Of a stretch of 63,569 nucleotides of DNA, positions 12,966 through 58,912 are shown one piece after another. Both the position numbers and the translations under genes were made by a program. How positions within the stretch are numbered: the stretch's first letter is position 1; every line of letters starts with the position of its first letter. The stretch comes from Candidatus Micrarchaeia archaeon (GTDB lineage Archaea > Micrarchaeota > Micrarchaeia > Burarchaeales > JAVZCV01), in contig JAVZCV010000001.1 of NCBI GenBank assembly GCA_038874215.1, positions 98,427 through 161,995 on the forward strand. The letters run 5' to 3'. The notes under the pieces were generated by a model. The model searched no databases and was not told the origin of the DNA. It was given only the letters and a program-made list of their open reading frames with translations.

Positions 12966-13007
12966 GGATGGGGAAGTATTATTTACTTTTATTTTTCTAA
13001 TATATTC

Positions 13008-13305
13008 GCAGCGGATAGGTCGGGAGGCTAGGGGTCTCCTGTAACCACAAATCCCCTTGCGGTGGGACCGAAAGACCGGTTGCGCTTCTGTCGGGTGCAG
13101 GCACGCTCTGCGTACTGGCGTTGAGGTCTTGCCTCTTGGGACGATGCGCTATGTGAAACGGGTCAGGCCGGAAGGAGCAGCCCTAAGCATAAACGTCATC
13201 TTTCAAAAAAGACGGTGAAATGCATCGTGCTCAGAGCCAACAGGACCGAGCAAAGGCGCAGAAAACGGTCTGTATCCGAAGATGCAAGACCGGAGCCTCC
13301 GCTGC
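13008..13305 (+). ncRNA. ffs: signal recognition particle (7S) RNA
   Basis: Universal helix-8 motif GGTCAGGCCGGAAGGAGCAGCC at 13161-13182 and Alu-domain CCTGTAACC. The 5' GCAGCGGA..GGAGGCT pairs with the 3' AGCCTCCGCTGC. About 298 nt, the typical archaeal size. Confidence 0.9.
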
Positions 13306-13309
13306 ATGC

Positions 13310-13508
13310 GCTGGGATCGCCTAGCGGTTCAGGCTTTGTAGCTAAAAGCTTGAGCAAAGAACAAAGCTTGCGTTAAAGGGCGGCAGCCTGCTATGTTCCT
13401 TCCTGCGTGGAAAGGAAAAGCAGCAAGCTGTTTGGCCATTCGGCCATCGTGGGTTCGAAAGAGTCGCCCATTCATAAACTGCCTCGTCCGAAAATCCCAC
13501 TCCCAGCG
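13310..13508 (+). tRNA. tRNA-Ser(GCU) with three predicted introns
   Basis: Acceptor GCTGGGA/TCCCAGC plus discriminator G. D-arm GCC-TAGCGGTTCA-GGC. Anticodon stem GCAGC/GCTGT with loop CT-GCT-A|A. Long variable arm TTGGCCATTCGGCCATC. T-stem GTGGG/CCCAC. Exons about 13310-13334, 13382-13393, 13426-13459, 13495-13508 (85 nt mature). Introns about 47, 32 and 35 nt. Confidence 0.8.
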
Positions 13509-13510
13509 CT

Positions 13511-13527
13511 TAATTATTTTTTTCTCT
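13511..13527 (+). terminator. oligo-T tract downstream of SRP RNA/tRNA-Ser
   Basis: TAATTATTTTTTTCTCTT immediately 3' of the tRNA; archaeal termination commonly occurs at T-runs. Confidence 0.4.
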
Positions 13528-13570
13528 TAATATGCAACATCTGCGAGCATGGGCTGACGACTCTGATACA

Positions 13571-13578
13571 TTTAAAAT
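13571..13578 (+). promoter_or_regulatory. TATA-box candidate for tRNA-Ile
   Basis: TTTAAAAT about 30-35 nt upstream of the tRNA 5' end. Confidence 0.4.
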
Positions 13579-13607
13579 CCTCACACGCATAACGTTATCC
13601 GTCATGC

Positions 13608-13682
13608 GGGCCCATAGCTTAGCCTGGTTGGAGCGCTCGGCTGATAACCGGGAGGTCGCCGGTTCGAATCCGGCTGGGCCCA
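13608..13682 (+). tRNA. tRNA-Ile(GAU), intron-less
   Basis: Clean cloverleaf: acceptor GGGCCCA/TGGGCCC+A, D-stem GCTT/GAGC, anticodon stem CTCGG/CCGGG with loop CT-GAT-AA, T-arm GCCGG-TTCGAAT-CCGGC. Confidence 0.93.
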
Positions 13683-13750
13683 CTAATTGTAGATTCCTTT
13701 ATATACTTTTTTTACCATAATATTATCTAAAACGATTTGCGGGTTATTGA

Positions 13751-27802: not shown

Positions 27803-27915
27803 TAGCCCCGAGAGGATTTCCGCTCAAAAGCCAGTATCGGTTTATTTTTTTGGAATTTCGAACCTCTGTGACTGGGTCCAGAGCCCAGTATCCTTGACCG
27901 CTAGATGACGGGGCT
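27803..27915 (-). tRNA. tRNA-Gln(CUG) with a 40-nt intron in the T-loop
   Basis: Minus strand: acceptor AGCCCCG/CGGGGCT+A, D-arm ATCT-AGCGGTCAA-GGAT, anticodon stem CTGGG/CCCAG with loop CT-CTG-GA, T-stem AGAGG/CCTCT. The T-loop TTCGAA|T is interrupted by plus-strand 27817-27856. Confidence 0.85.
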
Positions 27916-28546: not shown

Positions 28547-29437
28547 ATGAAAGTTAAAAACCTTCTTATCGGCATAACTGTTTTTCTTCTTGTTATCGTT
28601 ATTGTTGCGATAGGGTTGGTGTTAGTTATACCTGTGGCAGCGCCATCTCCCTGTGTAGGTGTTATAGAAGTGGATGGGCAAATAACCCTTAAAAAGCAAT
28701 CATACGGACTTTTTGAAACTCAGGGAATTTCAGCTGAGGAGATAGAGGAGATGATAGGGGAGGCAGAGATGAGGGACGATATAAAGGCTGTTGTATTTGA
28801 GATAAATTCGCCAGGCGGGTCTGTCGTTGCAACAAGAGAGATGTATGAGAATGTGAAAAGCCTGAAAAAGCCAAAGGTAGCATACCTACGAGAAATCGCC
28901 GCCTCGGGAGGATACTATGTTGCGGTTGGAACCGACTACATAGTCACCGATCCCGATGCGATTACGGGCAGCATTGGAGTTAGAGCTACATTTGAAGACT
29001 TGTCTGGACTATTTGAAAAGTTGGGTATAAATGTAACCACAATAAAATCAGGGGAGAAGAAAGACATCGGCGACCCGACGAGGCCGCTGAGCGAGGAGGA
29101 GAGAGCGATATTGCAGGGAATAGTTGATGAGATATTTCTTGAGTTTAGAGAAGATGTGAGGGAGAGCAGGGGAAGTCGGCTGAACAGCACGGCGTTCGCA
29201 GAGGTTCTTGATGGGAGGATATTAACAGGAAGACAGGCGAAAAGAGTGGGGCTTGTAGATGAGGTAGGCAACAAAAAAACCGCAATTAGGGTTGCGGGAC
29301 GGATGGCGGGCATTGAAGGTGAACCAAGGGTATGCAAGATAGAGCGGAGGGTTGGCCTTTGGGAAAGCATGCTGTCTGGTTTGGCCCGTGTGCTTCCATT
29401 AGAGAACTCACAGAGGATAAACCTGTATTTTTCTTAA
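28547..29437 (+). CDS. sppA: signal peptide peptidase SppA, 36K type (S49)
   Basis: EINSPGGSV and AASGGYY motifs, N-terminal TM anchor. Start set to the ATG at 28547 (MKVKNLLIGITVF). Confidence 0.9.
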   Translation: MKVKNLLIGITVFLLVIVIVAIGLVLVIPVAAPSPCVGVIEVDGQITLKKQSYGLFETQGISAEEIEEMIGEAEMRDDIKAVVFEINSPGGSVVATREMYENVKSLKKPKVAYLREIAASGGYYVAVGTDYIVTDPDAITGSIGVRATFEDLSGLFEKLGINVTTIKSGEKKDIGDPTRPLSEEERAILQGIVDEIFLEFREDVRESRGSRLNSTAFAEVLDGRILTGRQAKRVGLVDEVGNKKTAIRVAGRMAGIEGEPRVCKIERRVGLWESMLSGLARVLPLENSQRINLYFS

Positions 29438-29481
29438 AAAATCTCAAAAGGTTTATAATTGTGGATGGAGCATCTTATTCT

Positions 29482-30717
29482 ATGGAAAAAGGGGAAGATA
29501 CGAGCTCATTTGTAGAACTGCTTTTTGATAATTTTGGGGAAAGTGGGATTGAAGTGTATTGGCGCTTTTTGATGGGGGAGAGCCCCGAAGAGATAATGCT
29601 TGCCATGCGTTTGAGCGAAGCGCAGACGTTTAGAATTATTGAGTTCATAAAAAACATGAAGGGAGATGTTGGTGGGCTCTTTTATGGTGAGAAGAAACCA
29701 TGGGTAAAAAAGTACAAGGGTGAGGACGTTTTTTTGGAGATTAAAGAGGAGAAGGTAGGGATACGTGAGGATGCAGAAGTTATACATGAGGCGAGAATGG
29801 AGGACATGAAAAACGAACTGCTTGTGTATGGGCGCTTTGGTTCAAACGGTTTGAAAGCATGGGCCATGCTCCTTGCAGGTAGGAACCTAGGGGAGGTGAT
29901 AGCTAATACAGGCATGAGTGCTCTTGAGATAGGGAGGATGATAGAGTATCTGGTCTCTCCAAAAATAGAGATAGAGGAAAGCAAGGAGCAGATGGGAGAA
30001 ACAGAGACAGAAAAAAAAGAGATGGTGGAAGATGAAAGCCTCTACACTTCAAAGACTCTTGTAACCGCTATTCGGCCTGGTGTTGCTCCTTTCTCACTAC
30101 GAGATAGTTATGATATGCCTCTCTTTGATAGAAGTAGGGTTAGAGGTACAGACATCTTTAAACTCCAAATATTGATAATTGTGGGTGTCATTCTTCTTCT
30201 TATACTTATATACTTTTATTTTAAACCTCTTGTGAGCCCGACGAGCGTGGTAGTAGAACCAAGATTAACGATGAGTAGTGATAAAGACCGCTATTTATTT
30301 AACGAGAGTGTAAGAATTTTTGGCTCTGCGATAAACTGTGGCAATAACGTCAGTATATATGTTTCGGGGAATTTTTTGGATGAAGTTGCTGTTGAAGATG
30401 GGCATTATTCAAAGAGCATGCAGGGGCTCTCACCAGGCCAGCACGAGATAACGGCAAAATGTGGAAACACCACTACCACCCTATCCATTCTGGTTTTTGA
30501 ACCAGAATGTAGTGAGGGGGTTGTCGCTCCTTGCATTGATTCGCTTGGGTGCAGCGGTACAAGAACGTGTAGAAATGGCCGATGGACGGCATGCTACGTG
30601 AGAAGGATATGTACGCCTGGGGAAGAAGTAGGTTGCATGATGCCAGATGGCTGCAGTTTTGGAAAGAAAGTATGCAATGAGTGCGGGACGGATTTTGGAC
30701 CGTGTAGGCGGGTATGA
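29482..30717 (+). CDS. membrane-anchored protein: duplicated cytoplasmic HTH-like module, one TM, Ig-like plus Cys-rich ectodomain
   Basis: Repeat LLFDNFGESGIEVYWRFLMGESPEEIMLAMRLSEAQTFRIIEFI versus LLVYGRFGSNGLKAWAMLLAGRNLGEVIANTGMSALEIGRMIEYL. TM ILIIVGVILLLILIYFYF. 11 Cys in the last ~66 residues. TATA-like TTTATAAT about 25 nt upstream of the ATG at 29482. Confidence 0.7.
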   Translation: MEKGEDTSSFVELLFDNFGESGIEVYWRFLMGESPEEIMLAMRLSEAQTFRIIEFIKNMKGDVGGLFYGEKKPWVKKYKGEDVFLEIKEEKVGIREDAEVIHEARMEDMKNELLVYGRFGSNGLKAWAMLLAGRNLGEVIANTGMSALEIGRMIEYLVSPKIEIEESKEQMGETETEKKEMVEDESLYTSKTLVTAIRPGVAPFSLRDSYDMPLFDRSRVRGTDIFKLQILIIVGVILLLILIYFYFKPLVSPTSVVVEPRLTMSSDKDRYLFNESVRIFGSAINCGNNVSIYVSGNFLDEVAVEDGHYSKSMQGLSPGQHEITAKCGNTTTTLSILVFEPECSEGVVAPCIDSLGCSGTRTCRNGRWTACYVRRICTPGEEVGCMMPDGCSFGKKVCNECGTDFGPCRRV

Positions 30718-31514
30718 ACATGGGTGCAAAAAAGGCGTTTGTGTTCACAATTGATGCTTTCATATCGCTTACCATAGCGGTGATAATAATCTTTGCGATG
30801 TTGCTTCTTATCCACATCCCCCGCATACATTATGCAACCTACGAGCAAGAGTACGAAATAGCAGGCGATACACTCAGGGTATTGGACACGCTTAGGATTG
30901 GGTATATAACTGAAAACCCACACTGGAGTAAGGATGCGGTGGCGAATGCCCTCGGTGCAGAGGAGAAACATAGCGTTCTTGAACAAATTGTTGCTTACGC
31001 ATCCCAGCCCGGTGGGCTTGATCCATATCGGGTGGATTGTAGCAACCCAGGCACAATCGCAACTGATTTTGCGTGTGATTTTTTGGAAATGATGATTCCG
31101 AAGAGGTATGGCTATAGTTTAGAGCTAAACAGATTTGGTGCGTGGGAGACGATTGCAAAGCGTGAGAAGGCATATAGAAAGCTGCAGGCAGTAAGCACGC
31201 GGATAGTTTATGGCCCTGCATATACGACGATAAGCGAGGAGGCATATGGAACCATTGACCCATTCAATCCGACAAGCGGTGCGGACATTGAACCGAGGTC
31301 TCTTTACGTGATTGAGGGCGAATCACCATACTGTTATATGAGATGCCGGGGGTACCTGGGTTTTGGGAATGCTTATAAGAGCAGCGATGGTAGGATAGAA
31401 TCCCAGTTCCTTGACCCTTGTACGAGGGACCCTTGTAATCCCCCGAGCAACCCCGTATATCGGAAGGGCAATATAATCGGACCGTATGTGGTCAGGCTTG
31501 TGGTGTATATATGA
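30714..31514 (+). CDS. type IV pilin-like protein (class III signal peptide)
   Basis: N-terminus MNMGAKKA|FVFTIDAFISLTIAVIIIFAMLLL. ATGA overlap with the upstream gene. Cys-rich C-terminus. Confidence 0.7.
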   Translation: MNMGAKKAFVFTIDAFISLTIAVIIIFAMLLLIHIPRIHYATYEQEYEIAGDTLRVLDTLRIGYITENPHWSKDAVANALGAEEKHSVLEQIVAYASQPGGLDPYRVDCSNPGTIATDFACDFLEMMIPKRYGYSLELNRFGAWETIAKREKAYRKLQAVSTRIVYGPAYTTISEEAYGTIDPFNPTSGADIEPRSLYVIEGESPYCYMRCRGYLGFGNAYKSSDGRIESQFLDPCTRDPCNPPSNPVYRKGNIIGPYVVRLVVYI

Positions 31515-34249
31515 AATGCTGTAGTAAGAAGGGATTCCTCTTCACTCTCCTTGTCTTTATAGTTCTTGTCTTTATCGTTTTCTTGGCTTACATAATGGTA
31601 AAAAATGTTGAAGAGAAGGAGAGAACAAGAGCTGAGGAGTTTAAGATAAAAACCCTTCTTTCTATTTCGCGCTCGCTTAGCAAAGAAGAGATAAACGAAA
31701 TGGCCAGAACCGCAAATACGCGCGCCCTCTACTGTTTCAACAAATACGTGTATTATAACGGTTACATTACTGATGAGGATGGTGATGGGAATATCGTTGA
31801 TGATGAGGTGAAGGATAAGATAGAAGAAATAATCGTTCGCGGTATAGCGGACCCAGAAAGGCCAGTAGAAAATTGCATGGGTGGAGCAGACTTGGAAACA
31901 ATAGTAAGCAAAATTGAAAGTAGTGTTGGCATCGTTGGTTTTTCTGCTGATGTAGACGTAGAAAACCTTCAGGTAGAACAGCAGGACCCGTGGAGTATAA
32001 AATTTGAGTACGACATGGTGATTAGTATCAGAGATAGCTCCCCAGAACCCAAGATGAGTTTGCACCGCAGAGTGCACGTAAGCAACAGGATTCCCATAAC
32101 AGGGCTTGTGGACCCTGTTACGGCATTGGAGAGCAGGAGTAAGACGCAGCACACAGGTATGGATAGGTTCATCAAGCAGATTTACTACCCAAAACGCATT
32201 CTTGTCTATACGAATGCGAGGGAAAATGATGCTGGGTTAAATGCAGAGTCCTTTAACAACGACCTTGTCAGAATTCTTGGTGAGCAAGGCTATACTGTAA
32301 CAGTCATGGACAGGTACGATGCCTCGGGTAATCTCAAAATAGATGCGAAGCTCACAGATAGCCTGCTCGCTAATTTTTCGCAGTTGTGGGTTATATCCTC
32401 TCGTGATTGCTCTGGTTGCAAACTTGATGAAGATGATCCTTTGGGGGAGATGGAGAGGGCAGCGGTAAGAAAGTTCCATAAACGCGGCAATGGGATAGCG
32501 CTGTTTTCATACGGGCATCCCCAGGATGCTAAGGTATTTGCCAACAGTATTCTTGAAGCTCTTGGGATGATGAGAAGTGACGGATATGCTGAGTTTGTGG
32601 ATGGGGAAGTTGATAGAAAAGATGGGATAAATTTAACCGAATCGGATATATCTTACAGTACCAGCTCGCCTATATTTTACAATGTTGATAGGATAAGCGG
32701 TGGTAAAAAGGAGGCGAAAATAGAGATTGCGCTATCCAACCCAAAGGCCGCACGCATTCTCTGGGACGAGCGTACGGGAAAACAAGGCAATGTTGTTGTG
32801 GTCGTGGACGAGGATACGGCTGGGGAGATTATAGGGGGCCGTGTTCTTCTTGATTCTTCTTTTACCAGATTGCGCGACGCAGATGTAGTGGCGACCGCGA
32901 GTGGTGCTTATGATGACGGGGGTATAACGGATTATGAGACTGCACAATACGCGGTTAACATCGCAGATTACCTTGCGAATAGTCCTCAGCGCCCACCCGA
33001 AGGGTATGTCATGCTCCTTACAGAGAAACATGGCGGTGATGGTTTAAGAATCCGTGGCAAAGGTTGGTTTTATGGAAATTGGACTGAAATTTTTGATGAA
33101 TATGCAAACATATTAGTAACGGATAACCCCAAGCACGTGTTGGAGGTTCTTTCTAATCCTAGTGATGCGAACTATGAGAAATACGTGAAATTCGGTGCCT
33201 TCATCATAACTGTGGAGCCGAGCATAGATGTGGGTAGAAGCGACCCAGGGACATACGATGATACTGGCACGCCTGGGACGGACTCATCGTGCAATTATCT
33301 TGGCGGAACTTTTGATGATGGTATGGGAAACACCTGTGATTATGAAGTTTATGCAGAAGATCCCAATGGCCCTGGGGGTTGTTTTGACTGCTTACGCTGG
33401 AGCAAAGGTTGTAGTGTAGGTGGTGTTACACACTGTGAATTAAAGCCAGAGGTCTGGGCTAACAGAATAGACAGGCCTTTTATAGTTTTTCCAGAGTTTT
33501 CAGACTATAAAGATAAACTTGAAACGTACAGGCACGGCATACTGATAGATACGCATACGTGGAAAAATGCTGATAATATTGATATGGATGATGTGAGGGC
33601 AGGGGACGATGATAACCCCGATTCACCGTCTAACGCTTACTGGCGCATATATGACATTGAAGGAATGCGCGAACTATCAGTGTGCCTGTTCTACGAGAGG
33701 AACAACAGCGCACCAAGTTTTCTTAAGAGGCACACCGTGCAGTGGGATGAAACAGGTAGCACGGATTTGGATGAAAATGGAATACAGAGTTTTGTAGTGT
33801 TCAGTAGGGAGGATACGAACAGATGGGACTACACGCGTGTTGATTACCTATTCTGGCGGGGAGAAGGCGAAAATCTCGTGAATACTGGGGGCGACCCAAA
33901 TGAAGACCCGGATAACCCGTCTCAACCGCCTAATCCACCGTGGCTCGGCGACAATAATGCTGTTCCTGGGGAATATGTGATAAAGGGCATGCCGGGTTGC
34001 AAATATTCTGCGATGTGTACGTGCCCCTTACTATCACCACTCAGATTGTTTAGGTTGAGTGGGGATGATGTAGAACGGTTCGGTATTGTCCAGAGCGTTG
34101 ACCACGATAATGATGCGAGTACTCCTCCTATTGATATAAACATCGCATGTAGGGATTACGTAAAAAACAAGGGACGCCCAGACGAGAAAACTTATAAGGC
34201 GGGTGCAGCATGCGTTGACGATGATTTCAAAGCGGCAAACTGTCCTTGA
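31511..34249 (+). CDS. giant (912 aa) pilin-like surface protein
   Basis: N-terminus MKCCSKKG|FLFTLLVFIVLVFIVFLAYIMV. ATGA overlap with the upstream gene. Large D/G/C-rich extracellular region. Confidence 0.75.
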   Translation: MKCCSKKGFLFTLLVFIVLVFIVFLAYIMVKNVEEKERTRAEEFKIKTLLSISRSLSKEEINEMARTANTRALYCFNKYVYYNGYITDEDGDGNIVDDEVKDKIEEIIVRGIADPERPVENCMGGADLETIVSKIESSVGIVGFSADVDVENLQVEQQDPWSIKFEYDMVISIRDSSPEPKMSLHRRVHVSNRIPITGLVDPVTALESRSKTQHTGMDRFIKQIYYPKRILVYTNARENDAGLNAESFNNDLVRILGEQGYTVTVMDRYDASGNLKIDAKLTDSLLANFSQLWVISSRDCSGCKLDEDDPLGEMERAAVRKFHKRGNGIALFSYGHPQDAKVFANSILEALGMMRSDGYAEFVDGEVDRKDGINLTESDISYSTSSPIFYNVDRISGGKKEAKIEIALSNPKAARILWDERTGKQGNVVVVVDEDTAGEIIGGRVLLDSSFTRLRDADVVATASGAYDDGGITDYETAQYAVNIADYLANSPQRPPEGYVMLLTEKHGGDGLRIRGKGWFYGNWTEIFDEYANILVTDNPKHVLEVLSNPSDANYEKYVKFGAFIITVEPSIDVGRSDPGTYDDTGTPGTDSSCNYLGGTFDDGMGNTCDYEVYAEDPNGPGGCFDCLRWSKGCSVGGVTHCELKPEVWANRIDRPFIVFPEFSDYKDKLETYRHGILIDTHTWKNADNIDMDDVRAGDDDNPDSPSNAYWRIYDIEGMRELSVCLFYERNNSAPSFLKRHTVQWDETGSTDLDENGIQSFVVFSREDTNRWDYTRVDYLFWRGEGENLVNTGGDPNEDPDNPSQPPNPPWLGDNNAVPGEYVIKGMPGCKYSAMCTCPLLSPLRLFRLSGDDVERFGIVQSVDHDNDASTPPIDINIACRDYVKNKGRPDEKTYKAGAACVDDDFKAANCP

Positions 34250-34259
34250 TGGTGTAAAC

Positions 34260-34820
34260 ATGAAAGCGCAGGCAAGCATTGAGATGATGACTGTTATAGC
34301 GTTCATGGCCATCGTGCTTGTACCGCTCATAGTTATTCTATACCATAACACGCAGAATAGCCTTGACCGCATAGCGGTTGAGAGGGCACAGGACACGGCT
34401 GCTATGATAAGCGAAATTGTTTTTGAGGTATGGGCTGAGGGCGGCATGTATAGGTTTGATGCGACAGACCCGACAAAGCCAAGCGCCACTGCGGAAGCTG
34501 TCAGGACGGTGATGGTGCCGCCGAGGGTCAAGATGGTTGCGGTTGGAAGCACAACACAGATAGATCCGAGCGATCCGAGCAATCACGAAAAGGGGAATGA
34601 GATTATTATATTCTTGGAGACTACTTCGGGTGTTATGCAGGTAGCGGTTAAAACAGTACCTGTGGTAAGGGAATCCGAAGACCCCAATAAACGCATAACA
34701 AAATGCGAAAACAGGTTTGGCGGAGGTGGAAAATACTGCTATGTCCCGTCAGGACCTATTAGGATAAGAGTTCGGCATGACCCCGTACAAAAAGATGTTC
34801 TTGTGGTGGAGAGAGCATAA
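34260..34820 (+). CDS. type IV pilin-like protein (class III signal peptide)
   Basis: MKA|QASIEMMTVIAFMAIVLVPLIVILY matches the archaeal class III signal consensus (K/R-G/A-Q-x-S-x-E). Lies 10 nt after the upstream stop. Confidence 0.75.
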   Translation: MKAQASIEMMTVIAFMAIVLVPLIVILYHNTQNSLDRIAVERAQDTAAMISEIVFEVWAEGGMYRFDATDPTKPSATAEAVRTVMVPPRVKMVAVGSTTQIDPSDPSNHEKGNEIIIFLETTSGVMQVAVKTVPVVRESEDPNKRITKCENRFGGGGKYCYVPSGPIRIRVRHDPVQKDVLVVERA

Positions 34821-34821
34821 C

Positions 34822-35364
34822 ATGAAAAAAGCACAAGCAGCGAATGAATTCGTTATGTTCTTCGGCTTTTTCCTACTCATATTCATGATTTTTCTTATAT
34901 TAGTAGTAGTTGAGGTAGGGGGGGAGGTAGACAGGGAAAAAAAGAGGCAGGCATACTACATAGTTGCGGATTTTGCAAGGGAGATAAACGATGCAGTTAT
35001 GTTGGGCGACGGCTACATGAGATACTACGAGTTTCCGCAAACAATAGCGGGGAATAGATACAACGTCACGATAAGACGCTCTGGTTTTGTTGAACTCTGC
35101 GTGATAGATGAAAGTAGCACGGCATGTTCACCTAAAAGTTTCTATGTATTCGCACCGTTGCTTATTAGAGATGGCTTTGAAGCAGATAATTTTGGAGATC
35201 CAGCTATAGACATTCTAACGTTTGATGGTGGTTTAAGTGTAGACCCTAAAGATGATGGGTGGATTGTGGATACGGTAATAGGGGATGGAGGAACCCAGCA
35301 TGATACTCTGGTGATTAAAAACGATAATGGGAAGATAAAATTAGGGCAGAAGAAAGTTGCATAG
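34822..35364 (+). CDS. type IV pilin-like protein (class III signal peptide)
   Basis: MKKA|QAANEFVMFFGFFLLIFMIFLILVVV; 1-nt spacer after the upstream stop. Confidence 0.75.
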   Translation: MKKAQAANEFVMFFGFFLLIFMIFLILVVVEVGGEVDREKKRQAYYIVADFAREINDAVMLGDGYMRYYEFPQTIAGNRYNVTIRRSGFVELCVIDESSTACSPKSFYVFAPLLIRDGFEADNFGDPAIDILTFDGGLSVDPKDDGWIVDTVIGDGGTQHDTLVIKNDNGKIKLGQKKVA

Positions 35365-36039
35365 GTGGTTATTTTGGAAAGGCGTTGGTTAAGGGCTCAA
35401 ATATACGCTCTTGATGCGATAATGGGTGCCATAATATTCACGATAACCCTATCGGTTATATTTTTCTACTGGTGGGCGATGGGTCCGATGCTCTATGACC
35501 AGAGGGAAGATATGAAGGCCGAGGCTGTACGTGCGGCAGGCATGCTAATGACATCCGGGAATCCAGAAAACTGGGATGAACTCGTCAATCCTAACGATTA
35601 TTCTACGTTTGGTGATGTAAGGCAGGTTGGGTTGATGAGAGATATGAATACGAACGAAATTAGCAAGGAGAAGATGGGTAATCTTACCGAGATGATAGGT
35701 TATAACACAATCGTAGGTCCGCCAGCTCTCGGACCAGGAAGCCCAGATTATGATTTTTATTACAAGGTGCGCGAGCTTTTAGGGATATCCTATCATTTCA
35801 ACATAACTATCGTTGATGTTGATGTTAGCAGTGGTGAAGAAAGGGAGAGAATAATAGCGAAGGCAGGTGTTTGCCCAAGACCCGATACCCCTGCAACAGG
35901 TTGCAGTTGCACAGTTAATGACGCATACTGCGTCTGCCGCCTCATGAATGTTGTCACTGTTGAGAGGAACATAATTTATGACGATGGAGCTGGCAAAAAG
36001 CCTGTTATTTTGAGGTTGCAACTCTGGTCAACCGCCTAA
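35365..36039 (+). CDS. type IV pilin-like protein
   Basis: GTG start abutting the upstream stop. The N-terminus ..RRWLRA|QIYALDAIMGAIIFTITLSVIFFYWW parallels the FTIDAFISL N-terminus of the 30714 gene. Confidence 0.65.
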   Translation: MVILERRWLRAQIYALDAIMGAIIFTITLSVIFFYWWAMGPMLYDQREDMKAEAVRAAGMLMTSGNPENWDELVNPNDYSTFGDVRQVGLMRDMNTNEISKEKMGNLTEMIGYNTIVGPPALGPGSPDYDFYYKVRELLGISYHFNITIVDVDVSSGEERERIIAKAGVCPRPDTPATGCSCTVNDAYCVCRLMNVVTVERNIIYDDGAGKKPVILRLQLWSTA

Positions 36040-36098
36040 TTCTGTCCGACATATGCCGAGGATAAGCGTATATACCAGAAAAAATAGATAGCATAGGG

Positions 36099-36677
36099 GT
36101 GGCGATGGTTTACGCAACTTCCCAGTCGCAGAAAGGAGGTATGGAAATACCGCATGGGGTGAAAAACGAAATATTGGCTGGTATAAACAATCTGCAAAAA
36201 ATAAAGCAGACGCTTGAAGCATACGAATGCGGGCATCCTGCATTTAGACCAGAAATAGAAAAAATAATCAATAGGATAGAGAGGCAGATGGAGGATTTGA
36301 GGAGGGAGGGAATAACAAGGGAGGAGTTAAACAGGATTTTGGAGTTTGTTAAAAATATCCAAGTGCAACCGATTGTCGTTGCTGCAAAAAGGGAGGCAGA
36401 AATTAGGGGTATGAAGCCAGCAACAGAAGGTCTGATGAATAGCGTCATGCATGAGGAGAGGAGAGGACATGAACCCGTCAGGATGACAAAAACGTTGCAG
36501 GGCGCCTTGATAGAACTCATGAATGCTGCGGCAAAAGATGGAACACAGACTGTTAGGCTTGTTTGCGATGAAAAGCTATGTGAGGAGATAATGAGAATTT
36601 TGAGGACACAGTTTGCTTGGCGACCGCCAAAAGAAATAAGTAGGAACGGCAATACGCTTACTGTAAATTTTTCGTAA
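36099..36677 (+). CDS. hypothetical protein
   Basis: 192-aa ORF (GTG 36099 or ATG 36105, preceded by AGGGGTGG). Helical, charged, no recognised motif. Confidence 0.5.
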   Translation: MAMVYATSQSQKGGMEIPHGVKNEILAGINNLQKIKQTLEAYECGHPAFRPEIEKIINRIERQMEDLRREGITREELNRILEFVKNIQVQPIVVAAKREAEIRGMKPATEGLMNSVMHEERRGHEPVRMTKTLQGALIELMNAAAKDGTQTVRLVCDEKLCEEIMRILRTQFAWRPPKEISRNGNTLTVNFS

Positions 36678-38867
36678 TTAGTCCATGAATTCGTTCGGGC
36701 TTGGTGGTTCTGGCTTTTCACCCTTTCTCTCCCTTATCTGCCTGACTATTTTCTGCTGGAGCTCTCTTGGAAGTGGCTCAAAGCCAGCATACTCGTGGTA
36801 CCATATGGCTCTGCCCTGCGTTGCGCTTCTTATAGCGTTTGAGAACCCGAACATCTCGGCGACTGGCACTTTTGATGTTATTGATGCTATTTCTCCCTCC
36901 TGCTCTATATTCAGGACTTCTCCTCTCCTTCCCTGTATCTGCTGTATTATTTCTGATATGTATTCATATGGGGCTTGGACGAAAAGCTTCTGCTTTGGCT
37001 CAAGCAGAATCGGACCCGCGAAGAGCATTGCTGCATAGATGGGTCTTCTTATTGCAGGGACTATCTGGGCAGGCCCTCTATGCACGGGGTCTTCGTGAAT
37101 GAGGGCATCAACAATCTTAACCTTTATGCCAGTGACCTTCTCTCTTGACATCGGGCCGCTGTTAACTGCTTCCTCAAAACCCTGTATGAGAAGCTCCATT
37201 ACGTCGTTCATGTACTGGACTCCTTTCGTCATGTCTATTAGGACGCATCTGTTGCATATGTCCTTTATGTTTTTCGCCTCTTCTCGCGGCATCCCTGCCT
37301 CAACAAGAGTCTCCACGTATTGCTTGCCTTTCGGCCTCCCGTCAGGTATTTTTCCTTCAAGCATTGCTTCGTAAACGCCTTTCTCCAAAGGCTCAACTAC
37401 AACTTGGAATTTGGAGTGCTTATTCGGGGATTTGCCCTCAACGGGCCCATAGGGCTTGTCTATCGTCTCTCGGTAAACGACTATGGGCGGCGATGTAACT
37501 ATCTCAACGCCCTTTTCATTAACTATTTTGTACTCTATTATCTCAAGGTGGAGCTCGCCCATGCCTGAGATGAGGTGCTCGCCCGTTTCAGGGTTTATCT
37601 CAACCTTCACCGTTGGGTCTTCCTTCGCTATCTCCCTGAGCACATCTATTAGTTTAACGATGTCCTTCGTATTTTTTGATTCAACGGATTTCGTCACGAC
37701 AGGCTCGGAGTAATGTTTTATCTGTTCAAATGGCTCTACCCCTTCTTCGCTGACTGTTTCGCCCACATACAAGTTGTGCAAACCAACGAGCGCAACGATG
37801 TTTCCCGCTGGAACCTCCTCAACTATTACTCTGTCTGGTCCCATGTATATGCCAACCTGTTGTATTTTTTCCCTCTTGAAAGTTGCGGCAAGCGTTACCT
37901 CTGTGCCTTTTTTTGCCGTGCCAGAAAAAACGCGCGCTATCCCAACTTCGCCCGCATGCTCGTCTATCACAACGCCGAAGATAACCATTGAAAGCTTTGC
38001 GCTCGGGTCGCAGTTGAGCATCGCCTTCCCAGAATCCGAGTTTATGTCCCCATGCCAGAGGACGGGCACCCTGTAATTCTGCGCAACTTTAGGGTCTGGA
38101 AGATGTGTTATGACCATTCCGAGTATAACCTCGTCTACGGGCGCCTTTTCTACAAGAACGGAGTGCTCGTTTTTTGAGCAGTATTCGTATATGTTTTTGA
38201 ATGTTATCCCAGTCCGCTTCATGTAGCTGAAGCTAAGAGCCCATCTGTGAAAAGCAGAACCGAATGCAACGTTTCCCTTCTCAACTCCGATGAGCCATTT
38301 GTCTTTGAACTCGGGCCTGCAATAGCGCTCAATCAGCCTGTTCACATTCGTTATTATCTTCACAAGCCTTGCCTGCATTTCTTCGGGTGAGAGCTTCAAT
38401 TCGTTTATGAGCCTGTCTATCTTGTTTATGAAAAGAACAGGCTTGCTGTTTTCTTTCAGCGCCTGCCTCAGAACGGTTTCTGTCTGCGGCATAACCCCCT
38501 CAACAGCATCAACAACGAGAACAACACCATCAACAGCCCTCATCGCTCTCGTCACGTGCCCCCCAAAATCCACATGCCCAGGCGTGTCTATCAGGTTTAT
38601 CAGATAGTCCTCCCCATTATATTCAAAACCAAGGGAGATGTATGCGGCTTTTATCGTTATTCCCCTTTTCTGCTCAAGCTCCTCGTAGTCCATTACACGC
38701 TGCTGGCCTGCAAGGTCTTTTGACATAAGGCCCGCACGTGCGACGAGAGAATCGGTTAGCGTAGTCTTCCCATGGTCAACATGCGCAACAATACCGATAT
38801 TCCTTATTCTCTCTGGTTTTGTCATAAGTTTTTGAATCTCCTCTACCACGTATTCTTTCCTTACCAT
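36678..38867 (-). CDS. fusA: translation elongation factor aEF-2
   Basis: AHVDHGKTTL, DTPGHVDF, NKIDR, and the diphthamide region HEDPVHRG. Confidence 0.97.
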   Translation of the reverse strand: MVRKEYVVEEIQKLMTKPERIRNIGIVAHVDHGKTTLTDSLVARAGLMSKDLAGQQRVMDYEELEQKRGITIKAAYISLGFEYNGEDYLINLIDTPGHVDFGGHVTRAMRAVDGVVLVVDAVEGVMPQTETVLRQALKENSKPVLFINKIDRLINELKLSPEEMQARLVKIITNVNRLIERYCRPEFKDKWLIGVEKGNVAFGSAFHRWALSFSYMKRTGITFKNIYEYCSKNEHSVLVEKAPVDEVILGMVITHLPDPKVAQNYRVPVLWHGDINSDSGKAMLNCDPSAKLSMVIFGVVIDEHAGEVGIARVFSGTAKKGTEVTLAATFKREKIQQVGIYMGPDRVIVEEVPAGNIVALVGLHNLYVGETVSEEGVEPFEQIKHYSEPVVTKSVESKNTKDIVKLIDVLREIAKEDPTVKVEINPETGEHLISGMGELHLEIIEYKIVNEKGVEIVTSPPIVVYRETIDKPYGPVEGKSPNKHSKFQVVVEPLEKGVYEAMLEGKIPDGRPKGKQYVETLVEAGMPREEAKNIKDICNRCVLIDMTKGVQYMNDVMELLIQGFEEAVNSGPMSREKVTGIKVKIVDALIHEDPVHRGPAQIVPAIRRPIYAAMLFAGPILLEPKQKLFVQAPYEYISEIIQQIQGRRGEVLNIEQEGEIASITSKVPVAEMFGFSNAIRSATQGRAIWYHEYAGFEPLPRELQQKIVRQIRERKGEKPEPPSPNEFMD

Positions 38868-56747: not shown

Positions 56748-57809
56748 CTAATACACGATTTCTTTCAGCTTTCCCATTTCCATTGCGTTCTTTATTTCTC
56801 GCGCTATTCTTCTTCCAGTGCTCATCGGCTCATCAAATAAATAAACAGAGTATGGCGAGCCGTCTGGGAAAAGATTAGTGCCCGCAACTATGCGGGCGCT
56901 TATCTCAAACACATAGAACCTGAAATCCTCATCGCATATCATCTCTATGCAGAATGGCCCCGGTATCCCTCCCATCAGCCTATCGGCAGCTTCTACAACG
57001 CGCCTGCCCATCTCCATCATCTCTGGAAGCAGGCTCTCCCTTACTGCAACGGGCGCATTCCCCACAACTCCGAAAGAAGGCTCTACTATTACTCCTGCGC
57101 TCATCGCCCTGTGTATATCCTCCACATTCGTCTCAATCCTCCTGTCTATTGATAGAAGCTCAATTGAGCCCTTTGAAGCGGGGTATGCGTCTTTTGAGAG
57201 GGGTGTGTAGAAGTAGTGAGGGTAGAAGCGCGTTCCCACTATGTACTCCTGTATCATCGCCCCTTCCGTGCTTTTTCCTTTCGTTTTTGCAAGAAAGTCC
57301 TCATAGCTGCTCACAACGATATAACCCTTTCCGCCCTTCGCACCTCCGAATTTCACGAGGCAGGGGCGGTCTATTTCCTCTGGCTTGAATATTTTTGGCA
57401 CGCGGAGTTTTGCCTCCCTCATCCACTCAAACATCTTTTCTCTGCTCCTCTCCCACATCAGGACTCGCCTGTTTCCGAATATCGGTATCTCAAGCTCCTC
57501 AAGATTTTTCACATACTCTATAAGCGAGCCGTGCGGAATTAGAATTGCGTTTTTCTCAACGAGCTCGCCAACAACATCGGGAAGGTCTGAGAATTCCTTC
57601 ATGCATATCAGCTCATCGGGCTTCGCAAGCCTGAAAGAGCGGTAAACCTCAAGCTTTCTCGGTATTGAAATCCCTATCGTCTTTATTCCTTCTCTCCTTG
57701 CCCCGTGGAAAATTTGGAGAGCGCTGTGCGAGCATATCGTCGCTATTTTTGGCTCCTCATACTCTTCAAGAATTTTGTGAATCCTTTCCCTCGCTATCAA
57801 CACAATCAC
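56748..57809 (-). CDS. purP: 5-formaminoimidazole-4-carboxamide ribonucleotide (FAICAR) synthetase PurP, paralog 2
   Basis: ATP-grasp PurP pattern (IATICSHSALQIFHGARREG, IPIFGNR, STGRRIA). Start placed at the GTG at 57809, 5 nt after the upstream stop; the track's ATG at 57905 would overlap the upstream gene by 91 nt. Confidence 0.85.
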   Translation of the reverse strand: MIVLIARERIHKILEEYEEPKIATICSHSALQIFHGARREGIKTIGISIPRKLEVYRSFRLAKPDELICMKEFSDLPDVVGELVEKNAILIPHGSLIEYVKNLEELEIPIFGNRRVLMWERSREKMFEWMREAKLRVPKIFKPEEIDRPCLVKFGGAKGGKGYIVVSSYEDFLAKTKGKSTEGAMIQEYIVGTRFYPHYFYTPLSKDAYPASKGSIELLSIDRRIETNVEDIHRAMSAGVIVEPSFGVVGNAPVAVRESLLPEMMEMGRRVVEAADRLMGGIPGPFCIEMICDEDFRFYVFEISARIVAGTNLFPDGSPYSVYLFDEPMSTGRRIAREIKNAMEMGKLKEIVY

Positions 57810-57814
57810 CCAAA

Positions 57815-58912
57815 CTATGTTGTGATTTCCTTCATCCTTCCAGTCTCCTCCGCTTCCCTTATCTCTATCGCTATTCTCCTTCCCGTGCTCATAGGCTCTC
57901 TCCAAAGGTATTCCGTGTATGGGGTGAATCTCGTGCCTGGCGAACCGGGCACGCGCATGCTCACATCAAAAATGACTGGCTTCTCGCCTTTTTCTTCTGG
58001 GACTACTGCACCCTGCAAAGCAAAAGGCCCGATTATCCCAGGAGGATATTCTTTTTTGCTCGCCTCAACGAATCTCTCACCAAGCTCAAAAACCTCTTCA
58101 AGAAGGCTTTCCCTGAGGGTGCATGCAACATGGCCAACCTCTATGTTTTTCACGCGCACGTATTTGAGAAGCTCCAGTTGCTCCTTTGCGGGCAGGCGCA
58201 GAATTCCGTCTATATTCGTCTGCCTTCTCATGTCTATCCCGAGCAGTTCAAGCTCGCCGCTCAGCGGAGAGTAGAAGTAGTTGAAGTTGAACTGCGCCCC
58301 AACGACATACTCCTCTATCACGGCGCTCTCAAGCCCTTCCTTCGTTATGATGCACTTTTCAAGCATCTCCCTCGCCTTCTGCTCATACTCCTCATAGCTC
58401 GTTGCGAAGAAGAATGCCCTCTCATACGAGCGCTTTGCCTCTGGCGCCTTCACTATGACGAGCGTGTCTATCTCCTCTGGCTTGAGCTGGCGGGGAAACC
58501 TTATTCCCGCTTTCTTAAGCAGGTAGTACTGGTTTTTCTTTTCGTAGCGCTCCTCAGCCCTGAGCATCCACCTGTTCCCGAAGATGGGCACATTGAATTT
58601 TTTCTCAATATTATCGTATCCGACATAAACTGAGAAGGAGCGGTTTGGGACGAAAACGCATTCAAGCTCTTGCAGTTTCTCCTTAACAGGCTCATTCACG
58701 ATATCTGCGAATTTATCAAGCAGTATTATCTCGTCAATTATCCCGATTTCCCTTCCATGGGCGTTCCTGCACCTATGCCGCACGTATGTTTTCTCCCTTC
58801 CCCTCTGGCATACTACGACAGTTTTTAGCCTCTCCTTTTTCGCACCTTCGCATATGTCAAGCGCGGAGTGGCTTCCGAGAGAGCAAACAGCTACCATTAA
58901 TCCGTTATACAC
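57815..58912 (-). CDS. purP: FAICAR synthetase PurP, paralog 1
   Basis: VCSLGSHSALDICEGAKKE, VPIFGNRWMLR, STGRRIAIEI: same family architecture as the downstream gene. Confidence 0.88.
   Translation of the reverse strand: MYNGLMVAVCSLGSHSALDICEGAKKERLKTVVVCQRGREKTYVRHRCRNAHGREIGIIDEIILLDKFADIVNEPVKEKLQELECVFVPNRSFSVYVGYDNIEKKFNVPIFGNRWMLRAEERYEKKNQYYLLKKAGIRFPRQLKPEEIDTLVIVKAPEAKRSYERAFFFATSYEEYEQKAREMLEKCIITKEGLESAVIEEYVVGAQFNFNYFYSPLSGELELLGIDMRRQTNIDGILRLPAKEQLELLKYVRVKNIEVGHVACTLRESLLEEVFELGERFVEASKKEYPPGIIGPFALQGAVVPEEKGEKPVIFDVSMRVPGSPGTRFTPYTEYLWREPMSTGRRIAIEIREAEETGRMKEITT

Follow-up and report, generated by a model that had tools for sequence, protein, structure and literature searches.

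A 199-nt segment at positions 13310-13508 of the forward strand was analysed in the context of the window, that is, the whole 63,569-nt stretch of DNA from contig JAVZCV010000001.1 (assembly GCA_038874215.1). With high confidence, this segment is a real and very probably functional class II tRNA-Ser(GCU) gene, made of four exons and interrupted by three introns with bulge-helix-bulge (BHB) motifs, from a host belonging to the Micrarchaeota (DPANN). The gene starts 4 nt after the end of a signal recognition particle (SRP, 7S) RNA gene, and the features of the locus are as follows.

13008-13305, + strand: archaeal SRP (7S) RNA gene; Rfam Archaea_SRP full model 1-317, 91.6 bits, E 3e-19
13310-13328, + strand: exon 1, 19 nt; acceptor 5' strand GCUGGGA, U8 C9, D-stem GCCU, D-loop AGCGGU (tRNA positions 1-20), with the 5' splice site defined by the BHB motif
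13329-13376, + strand: intron 1, 48 nt, D-loop position 20/21; strict hBHBh' motif
13377-13393, + strand: exon 2, 17 nt; A21, D-stem GGGC, G26, GCAGC, C32 U33, anticodon GCU, A37
13394-13425, + strand: intron 2, 32 nt, canonical position 37/38; relaxed on the h' side
13426-13459, + strand: exon 3, 34 nt; A38, GCUGU, 17-nt variable arm (UGGCC/GGCCA), T-stem GUGGG, T-loop UUCGAA (positions 54-59)
13460-13494, + strand: intron 3, 35 nt, T-loop position 59/60; short h'
13495-13508, + strand: exon 4, 14 nt; U60, T-stem CCCAC, acceptor UCCCAGC, G73
13517-13523, + strand: run of seven T residues, 9 nt past the discriminator, read from the sequence

The spliced product and its splice sites

After splicing, the mature tRNA-Ser(GCU) is 84 nt long, GCUGGGAUCGCCUAGCGGUAGGGCGGCAGCCUGCUAAGCUGUUUGGCCAUUCGGCCAUCGUGGGUUCGAAUCCCACUCCCAGCG, is called tRNA-Ser(gct) by ARAGORN and forms a canonical cloverleaf from collinear exons on a single strand. 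The nucleotides U8, A14, G15, G18 G19, A21, U33 and A37 are all present, with A14, G18 G19 and A21 held in the D-loop AGCGGUA, as are the T-loop UUCGAAU and the discriminator G73. The anticodon loop CUGCUAA, the 17-nt variable arm with its 5-bp stem UGGCC/GGCCA and G73 are those of a class II tRNA-Ser(GCU). All stems are intact with G-U pairs as the sole deviations, and CCA is not encoded at the 3' end. As had been forecast in the first-pass annotation of this DNA, the gene is missed by standard finders: neither ARAGORN nor Rfam (at gathering thresholds and at E ≤ 5) makes a call within 13310-13508.

Other kinds of interrupted RNA genes were considered. A split or permuted tRNA, of the kind found in Nanoarchaeum, Caldivirga and Cyanidioschyzon merolae, is ruled out by the arrangement of the four exons, which are collinear on one strand within 199 nt. 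Group I and group II self-splicing introns are ruled out by the intron lengths of 48, 32 and 35 nt and by zero matches to Rfam intron families at E ≤ 5. An open reading frame (ORF) at 13407-13592 (+), named in the first-pass annotation, runs over the last two introns, the last two exons and the tRNA terminator, and is almost certainly spurious.

All splice-site pairs in the region were scanned for BHB motifs. In these, 3-nt bulges, cut between their second and third nucleotides (marked below by an arrow), flank a central helix (H) of 4 bp, and the motif is completed by an outer helix (h) and a helix inside the intron (h'). The first-pass annotation had proposed folding each junction as a check, and all three prove able to form the archaeal 3-4-3 motif, either strict or relaxed, with the splice sites in the bulges. 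For intron 1, cut after 13328 and before 13377, the motif has H=4, h'=10 and h=6, with the central helix AGCG/cguu, the bulges GU↓u and aa↓A, and a 10-bp intron hairpin stem as h'. On the + strand, no other BHB motif in the 63.6-kb window is as strong, and the score of the intron 1 motif was reached by 0 of 20,000 intron shuffles.

These boundaries differ from those first proposed, namely an intron 1 of 47 nt at 13335-13381, between tRNA positions 25 and 26, with a junction that can slide by at most 4 nt. Splicing there would leave ...GCGGUAGGGCGG... at the junction of the mature tRNA and give an 85-nt product with the D-loop AGCGGUUC. The four blocks of that proposal do exist on the + strand, their 85-nt join is called tRNA-Ser(gct) by ARAGORN and folds on its own as a class II cloverleaf, and, with AGGC/GGGC flanking the segment, a D-stem is possible either way. 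However, no BHB motif forms at 13334/13382 or at slides of -5 to +1, where at most three of the four central-helix pairs and flanking helices of at most 2 bp are available, against H=4, h'=10 and h=6 at 13328/13377, a site that falls outside the 4-nt slide. The homologs described below also disagree with that version. All 11 homologous tRNA-Ser(GCU) sequences, four uninterrupted genes included, read GG(N)UAGGGCG across the D-loop junction; the corrected product GGTAGGGCG agrees with this consensus, whereas GGTTCAGGCG of the earlier version does not, and its GGUUCAGGCG is the sole outlier among the D-loop junction sequences compared. Moreover, the 35 homologs with a D-loop intron all end a 19-nt exon 1 in GGU, and the earlier version would put C at position 21 instead of the near-universal A21. 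That the gene is real and spliced at 13335-13381 is thus highly improbable. Because the BHB motif and the homolog D-loop consensus both point to 13328/13377, intron 1 is placed at 13329-13376 and the mature length is 84 rather than 85 nt.

Introns 2 (13394-13425) and 3 (13460-13494) retain the coordinates first given to them. Intron 2 has H=4, h=6 and h'=0, with the central helix CUGC/gcag and the bulges UA↓u and ca↓A, and the probability of H=4 estimated from shuffles is ~0.02. Intron 3 has H=4, h'=2 and h=5 (the T-stem), with the central helix UUCG/cgaa and the bulges AA↓a and aa↓U; shuffling puts the probability of H=4 combined with h' of at least 2 at ~0.002. By sequence alone, the junctions of both introns can slide by 1-2 nt with the product unchanged, and it is the BHB register that sets them at 37/38 and 59/60. 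No C/D-box small RNA signatures were seen in the three introns on inspection by eye.

Folded without constraints, the 199-nt precursor has a minimum free energy (MFE) of -78.8 kcal/mol (z = -4.0; 0 of 200 shuffles equally stable), and the MFE structure shows all five tRNA helices (acceptor, D, anticodon, variable and T) as well as the 3-4-3 motifs of introns 1 and 3 in exact form. When all three canonical motifs are enforced, the energy is -75.4 kcal/mol; as this costs just 3.4 kcal/mol over the MFE, the canonical three-motif structure comes close to the optimum.

On the window's + strand, BHB-like motifs with short helices (h of at least 3, h' of at least 2) number ~21 per kb, so the capacity to form a BHB is by itself weak proof of an intron, and this frequency is what could be said for a chance assembly of tRNA-like fragments, or for a chimera of metagenome assembly, with no gene at the locus. 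The search was therefore widened in the style of SPLITS to all intergenic gaps on both strands, removing BHB candidates (H=4, h of at least 4) in every combination of at most three before running ARAGORN. Within the gap 12966-13750, 2 of 6,566 subsets yield a tRNA-Ser, namely the three-intron set and a variant with intron 1 shifted by 1 nt, and dinucleotide shuffles of the locus yield no tRNA of any kind (0/100). In an independent Logan assembly (run SRR30574052), 857 nt covering the SRP RNA, the tRNA-Ser and a downstream tRNA-Ile match the window with 100% identity, which argues against a local assembly artefact. Homologous interrupted genes are moreover found in dozens of other genomes. The shuffles, the subset search, the Logan assembly and the homologs together effectively refute the chance or chimera explanation, to which we assign a negligible probability.

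Homologous loci and covariation

Homologous loci were collected with an SRP RNA motif as the anchor, followed by spliced alignment and BHB refinement; two junctions were corrected by hand (the DP split in L148 and a 1-nt junction in L112). A tRNA-Ser(GCU) gene follows the SRP RNA in 13 Micrarchaeota loci of this set, with zero to three introns at exactly the three sites found in the window, distributed as follows.

No intron: L115, L169, L187, L198
59/60 only: L160, L112, L150
37/38 and 59/60: L156, L148, L127
37/38, on a contig ending inside the gene: L142
20/21, 37/38 and 59/60: the window, L094

Altogether, the gene was found in 47 related loci, as a rule immediately after the SRP RNA and with zero to three introns at these three sites, and the three-intron state occurs in 2 of the 48 loci examined, the window and L094. 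A pattern scan for tRNA-Ser(GCU) interrupted after GGU detected the D-loop intron in 26 species-representative genomes (24 labelled Micrarchaeota and two Marsarchaeota) and nine metagenome contigs. The first exon is 19 nt long in all 35 of these homologs, and the 20/21 intron is the only one in 34 of them, L094 being the exception. The 17-mer of exon 2, AGGGCGGCAGCCUGCUA, is identical in L094, L115, L198 and all 35 pattern matches. The 59/60 intron is also present in seven other Micrarchaeota tRNA-Ser loci. An exact search with the 25-mer of exon 1 as first drawn gave no match in the contigs of GTDB representative genomes, which means that the window's genome is not one of these.

L094, from the metagenome-assembled genome (MAG) LacPavin_0920_SED3_MAG_54_8 (JAPLWU010000117.1), resembles the window most closely. 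Its gene also lies directly after the SRP RNA and has four exons (19, 17, 33 and 14 nt), and the three intron positions and their bulges (GU↓n..aa↓A, UA↓n..ca↓A and AA↓a..aa↓U) are common to both. The introns differ, being 32, 143 and 83 nt long in L094 and 48, 32 and 35 nt in the window, and no resemblance between the two sets is evident at the sequence level; the T-loop and canonical introns of L094 carry hairpins conserved with other Micrarchaeota, whereas those of the window lack them.

Across the loci the exons are conserved, the introns are variable and the helices spanning the introns covary. Cloverleaf covariation was measured on 12 sequences, comprising the corrected product of the window, ten homologs and the earlier splice version. 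Paired cells amount to 98.4%, two-sided changes are seen in 14 of 26 pairs, and all five covariation measures exceed those of 500/500 shuffles, while sliding the register by 1-3 columns lowers pairing to 36-55%. Each helix tested spans at least one of the introns proposed in the window.

Covariation also links exons with introns. The D-loop central helix is AGUG/cacu in 17 of 28 distinct introns, and the window alone has C16 (AGCG), together with an intron carrying the matching g (cguu). This change from U16-a to C16-g is, at the level of sequence, a compensatory change between exon and intron. The T-loop central helix likewise forms a series at position 57, from G57-c through G57-u to A57-u, as UUCG/cgaa (the window and L094), UUCG/ugaa (L160) and UUCA/ugaa (L127 and L112). 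The sequence of the intron-1 hairpin h' differs completely between lineages, and yet its first three positions pair in 28, 27 and 23 of the 28 distinct introns, with 5-6 pair types each, a level matched by 0 of 2,000 shuffles. The D-loop intron bulges are nearly invariant (GU↓n and aa↓A). Canonical introns, which range from 32 to 143 nt (46-143 nt in five homologs), have gcag or gcgg exactly 2 nt 5' of the 3' splice site.

Could the locus instead be a decaying tRNA pseudogene that took up three unrelated insertions and lost tRNA processing? The silence of ARAGORN and Rfam would fit such a view. Against it, the stems of the spliced product are all intact and free of mismatches apart from G-U pairs; each insertion lies in a BHB-forming register, with a joint chance probability far below 1e-6; other Micrarchaeota are occupied at the same three sites, with covarying stems and exon-intron compensation; and both the conserved position after the SRP RNA and a downstream T-run have been kept. 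A pseudogene is accordingly improbable. The BHB motifs, the homologs and the covariation support what the first-pass annotation had recognised here, a class II tRNA-Ser(GCU) whose D-arm, 37/38 site and T-loop each hold an intron.

Several features of homologous introns were observed along the way. The T-loop (59/60) introns of six loci have a conserved hairpin in common, cccuuucuuuu...aaaagaaaggg, and after it comes a second element, ccccaaaagaaaa...gggg. This resembles either a family of homologous introns or a structured element embedded in them, and the 35-nt T-loop intron of the window does not have it. The canonical (37/38) introns of L094, L156, L142 and L148 are related, because they start alike with ccgaaccgcggaggggg(acacccccucccc)aguuuca; the 32-nt intron of the window is unrelated to them in sequence. 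Positions of both groups, in coordinates of the extracted regions, are as follows.

T-loop introns with the shared hairpin: L094 600-682, L156 432-530, L148 589-690, L127 496-566, L160 447-517, L112 468-529
Related 37/38 introns: L094 424-566, L156 304-398, L142 417-510, L148 510-555

At L150 (JAHKLY010000002.1), the "uninterrupted" tRNA-Ser(gct) called by ARAGORN is an artefact that reads into the T-loop intron and so ends in a spurious 3' half, ...GGTTCAAACCTTTTCTCTTTT. The true gene is interrupted at 59/60 by an intron of 62 nt; here the finder makes a wrong call rather than a missing one.

The SRP RNA neighbour, proposed processing and window context

The order of SRP RNA followed by tRNA-Ser also occurs at L094, L115, L127, L142, L160, L187, L198 and L201-L234, and the SRP helix-8 motif lies 131-240 nt upstream in 32 of the 35 loci with a D-loop intron. 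The spacer of just 4 nt excludes a promoter for the tRNA-Ser within it, and the SRP RNA is probably the upstream part of the tRNA-Ser transcription unit. The downstream tRNA-Ile has its own TTTAAAAT box. The T7 run at 13517-13523 likely serves as the archaeal terminator of the SRP RNA-tRNA-Ser unit, and T-rich tracts are also found downstream of the gene in L094, L156, L148, L127 and L150. Such a conserved order suggests a dicistronic unit in which tRNA processing would set the 3' end of the SRP RNA. In Methanothermus fervidus the 7S RNA and tRNA-Ser genes are reportedly linked, as Haas and colleagues are said to have described in 1990; a look through the literature on SRP (7S) RNA-tRNA co-transcription in archaea found nothing relevant.

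At 91.6 bits, the window's SRP RNA gene scores under the Archaea_SRP gathering threshold of 96.5, and at default settings it is reported solely as Bacteria_large_SRP (64.3 bits), a call that on its own could lead to a wrong domain assignment. Among 12 related loci tested in this way, 11 had no SRP model at or above its threshold.

Based on established archaeal tRNA biology and published Micrarchaeota work, the following pathway can be proposed. Transcription would probably start at a promoter upstream of the SRP RNA and run through the tRNA to the T7 run at 13517-13523, and RNase P would cut at 13309/13310 to produce the tRNA 5' end. In the precursor, each exon-intron pair would fold as a 4-bp helix between two 3-nt bulges, and the introns would be removed by the host's tRNA-splicing enzyme, presumably a broad-specificity endonuclease (of the epsilon2 type as in ARMAN-2, or an equivalent) cutting between the second and third bulge nucleotides. 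An RtcB-type ligase would then join the four exons, and CCA, as it is not encoded, would be added afterwards.

Certain observations weigh against this account of the gene. The homolog junctions were partly chosen to give an ARAGORN-valid product, which favours cloverleaf pairing somewhat while leaving the exon sequences unaltered. Intron 2 has its internal hairpin set apart from the bulge (h'=0), which leaves the motif relaxed on that side, and the precursor MFE structure uses a helix shifted by 1 nt there instead of the canonical register, so that an enzyme of strict specificity might handle this intron poorly. Only three things speak for co-transcription with the SRP RNA: the genes are 4 nt apart, no promoter is obvious between them, and their synteny is conserved. 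Finally, Pfam searches found neither a splicing endonuclease (PF01974/PF02778) nor RtcB among the 61 ORFs of the window, a result that carries no information, given how little of the genome the window covers (it is part of a 162-kb contig).

A wider proposal, which as a whole we regard as speculative, is that the SRP RNA and tRNA-Ser(GCU) form one processing unit throughout the Micrarchaeota, in which the tRNA would act as the 3'-maturation signal of the SRP RNA via RNase P and SRP biogenesis would be coupled to pre-tRNA folding, that the zero to three introns represent a natural series of gain and loss, and that the window and L094 hold the first three-intron tRNAs described outside Crenarchaeota.

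The window, with a G+C content of 46%, comes from an archaeon: it contains the archaeal SRP RNA, GGGP synthase, CDP-archaeol synthase, an archaeal SAM synthetase and deoxyhypusine synthase (DHS), and further archaeal hallmarks are FEN1, split RpoB and RpoA, aEF-2 and S7/S12. The nearest DHS genes belong to Micrarchaeota MAGs at 60-65% identity, none being closer among 5.8 billion proteins, and the 20-nt SRP helix-8 motif of the window is found in ~70 archaeal MAGs, nearly all labelled Micrarchaeota. Both lines of evidence assign the host to a Micrarchaeota (DPANN) lineage with no close sequenced relative. When synteny was traced via the DHS gene upstream, the closest DHS loci (60-64% identity, Micrarchaeota) had no SRP RNA or tRNA-Ser nearby.

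Two further tRNA genes lie in the window.

13608-13683: tRNA-Ile(GAU), the only tRNA in the window called by ARAGORN
27803-27915, - strand: tRNA-Gln(CUG), hidden; exon 1 27915-27857, intron 27856-27817, exon 2 27816-27803

The tRNA-Gln(CUG) gene is not called by ARAGORN or Rfam at 27803-27915. It has a 40-nt intron at T-loop position 59/60, with the central helix UUCG/cgga and the bulges AA↓a and aa↓U, and a TTTAAATA box ~30 nt upstream.

Elsewhere in the window, seven consecutive ORFs at 29332-36721 (461, 266, 912, 82, 195, 224 and 203 aa), adjoining the aEF-2/S7/S12/RNA polymerase cluster, have no Pfam match at E ≤ 1e-5. The adjacent ORFs at 56748-57905 (-; 385 aa) and 57815-58912 (-; 365 aa) overlap by ~90 nt as called; the first has PurP-type DUF1246/DUF1297 domains (Pfam), the second looks PurP-like from its translation by eye, and the two (56748-58912, -) may be tandem paralogs. 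Two seeming ORF-free gaps of 0.9-1.0 kb actually hold an M48 peptidase gene and the second PurP-like gene.

Comparison with known systems

The analysis bears mainly on DPANN genome annotation and provides clean comparative data on BHB intron evolution; its interest is modest. Both the tRNA-Ser(GCU) and the tRNA-Gln(CUG) are invisible to ARAGORN and the Rfam tRNA model, and through such hidden genes, genome bins seem short of essential tRNAs, which distorts inferences on DPANN completeness and codon usage. The comparison set consists of one orthologous gene in ~48 lineages, with zero to three introns at three fixed positions and exon-intron covariation, and is useful for studying the gain, loss and recognition rules of BHB introns without overturning current understanding. 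The window's gene also extends to Micrarchaeota a three-intron tRNA architecture described mainly for Thermoproteales, and fits the idea that broad-specificity splicing endonucleases permit introns to accumulate.

Archaeal tRNA genes are described in PMC3239211 and PMC4033280 as having "one to a maximum of three" introns, placed at canonical as well as non-canonical sites, mainly in Thermoproteales. The multiple-intron tRNAs of Thermoproteales (Crenarchaeota), detected with SPLITS/SPLITSX (Sugahara et al. 2007, 2008; PMC4033280), resemble the window's gene in their collinear exons, in having up to three short BHB introns including those of the D-loop and T-loop, in being missed by standard finders and in the removal of introns by a broad-specificity splicing endonuclease. 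They differ in host, Crenarchaeota against DPANN Micrarchaeota, and in enzyme, (alpha-beta)2 against what is presumably epsilon2 in the host of the window. Multi-intron genes are moreover reported to be common in Thermoproteales, whereas the three-intron state is rare (2/48) in the Micrarchaeota loci examined.

Within the same phylum, ARMAN-1 and ARMAN-2 are listed with multiple-intron tRNAs (PMC4033280). Candidatus Micrarchaeum acidiphilum ARMAN-2 (Fujishima et al. 2011, PMC3239211; Hirata et al. 2012, PMC3488258; PDB 4FZ2) has 37/38 and 59/60 introns with strict or relaxed BHB motifs; according to these papers, 56% of its tRNA genes are interrupted and its epsilon2 EndA cleaves strict 37/38 and relaxed 59/60 introns in vitro. 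It differs from the window in that the main text of PMC3239211 gives at most two introns per gene (tRNA-Pro GGG, 53/54 and 59/60), and that main text makes no mention of a tRNA-Ser(GCU) with introns at 20/21, 37/38 and 59/60. Every reference genome is at best a distant relative of the window's organism, whose DHS is at most 65% identical to that of the nearest relative.

Outside the archaea, the tRNA-Ile(UAU) of Cyanidioschyzon merolae (PMC3728597, PMC9602550) similarly combines D-arm, anticodon-arm and T-arm introns in one gene and depends on a protein endonuclease, but it is a eukaryotic nuclear gene with a eukaryotic enzyme complex and an unrelated evolutionary origin. The three-intron BHB architecture of archaeal tRNAs is already documented, and so is splicing of broad specificity in Micrarchaeota. 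The window's gene has every structural feature of that family that could be checked; what may be new is the three-intron state in Micrarchaeota (2/48 loci) and the phylum-wide tandem of SRP RNA and tRNA-Ser(GCU).

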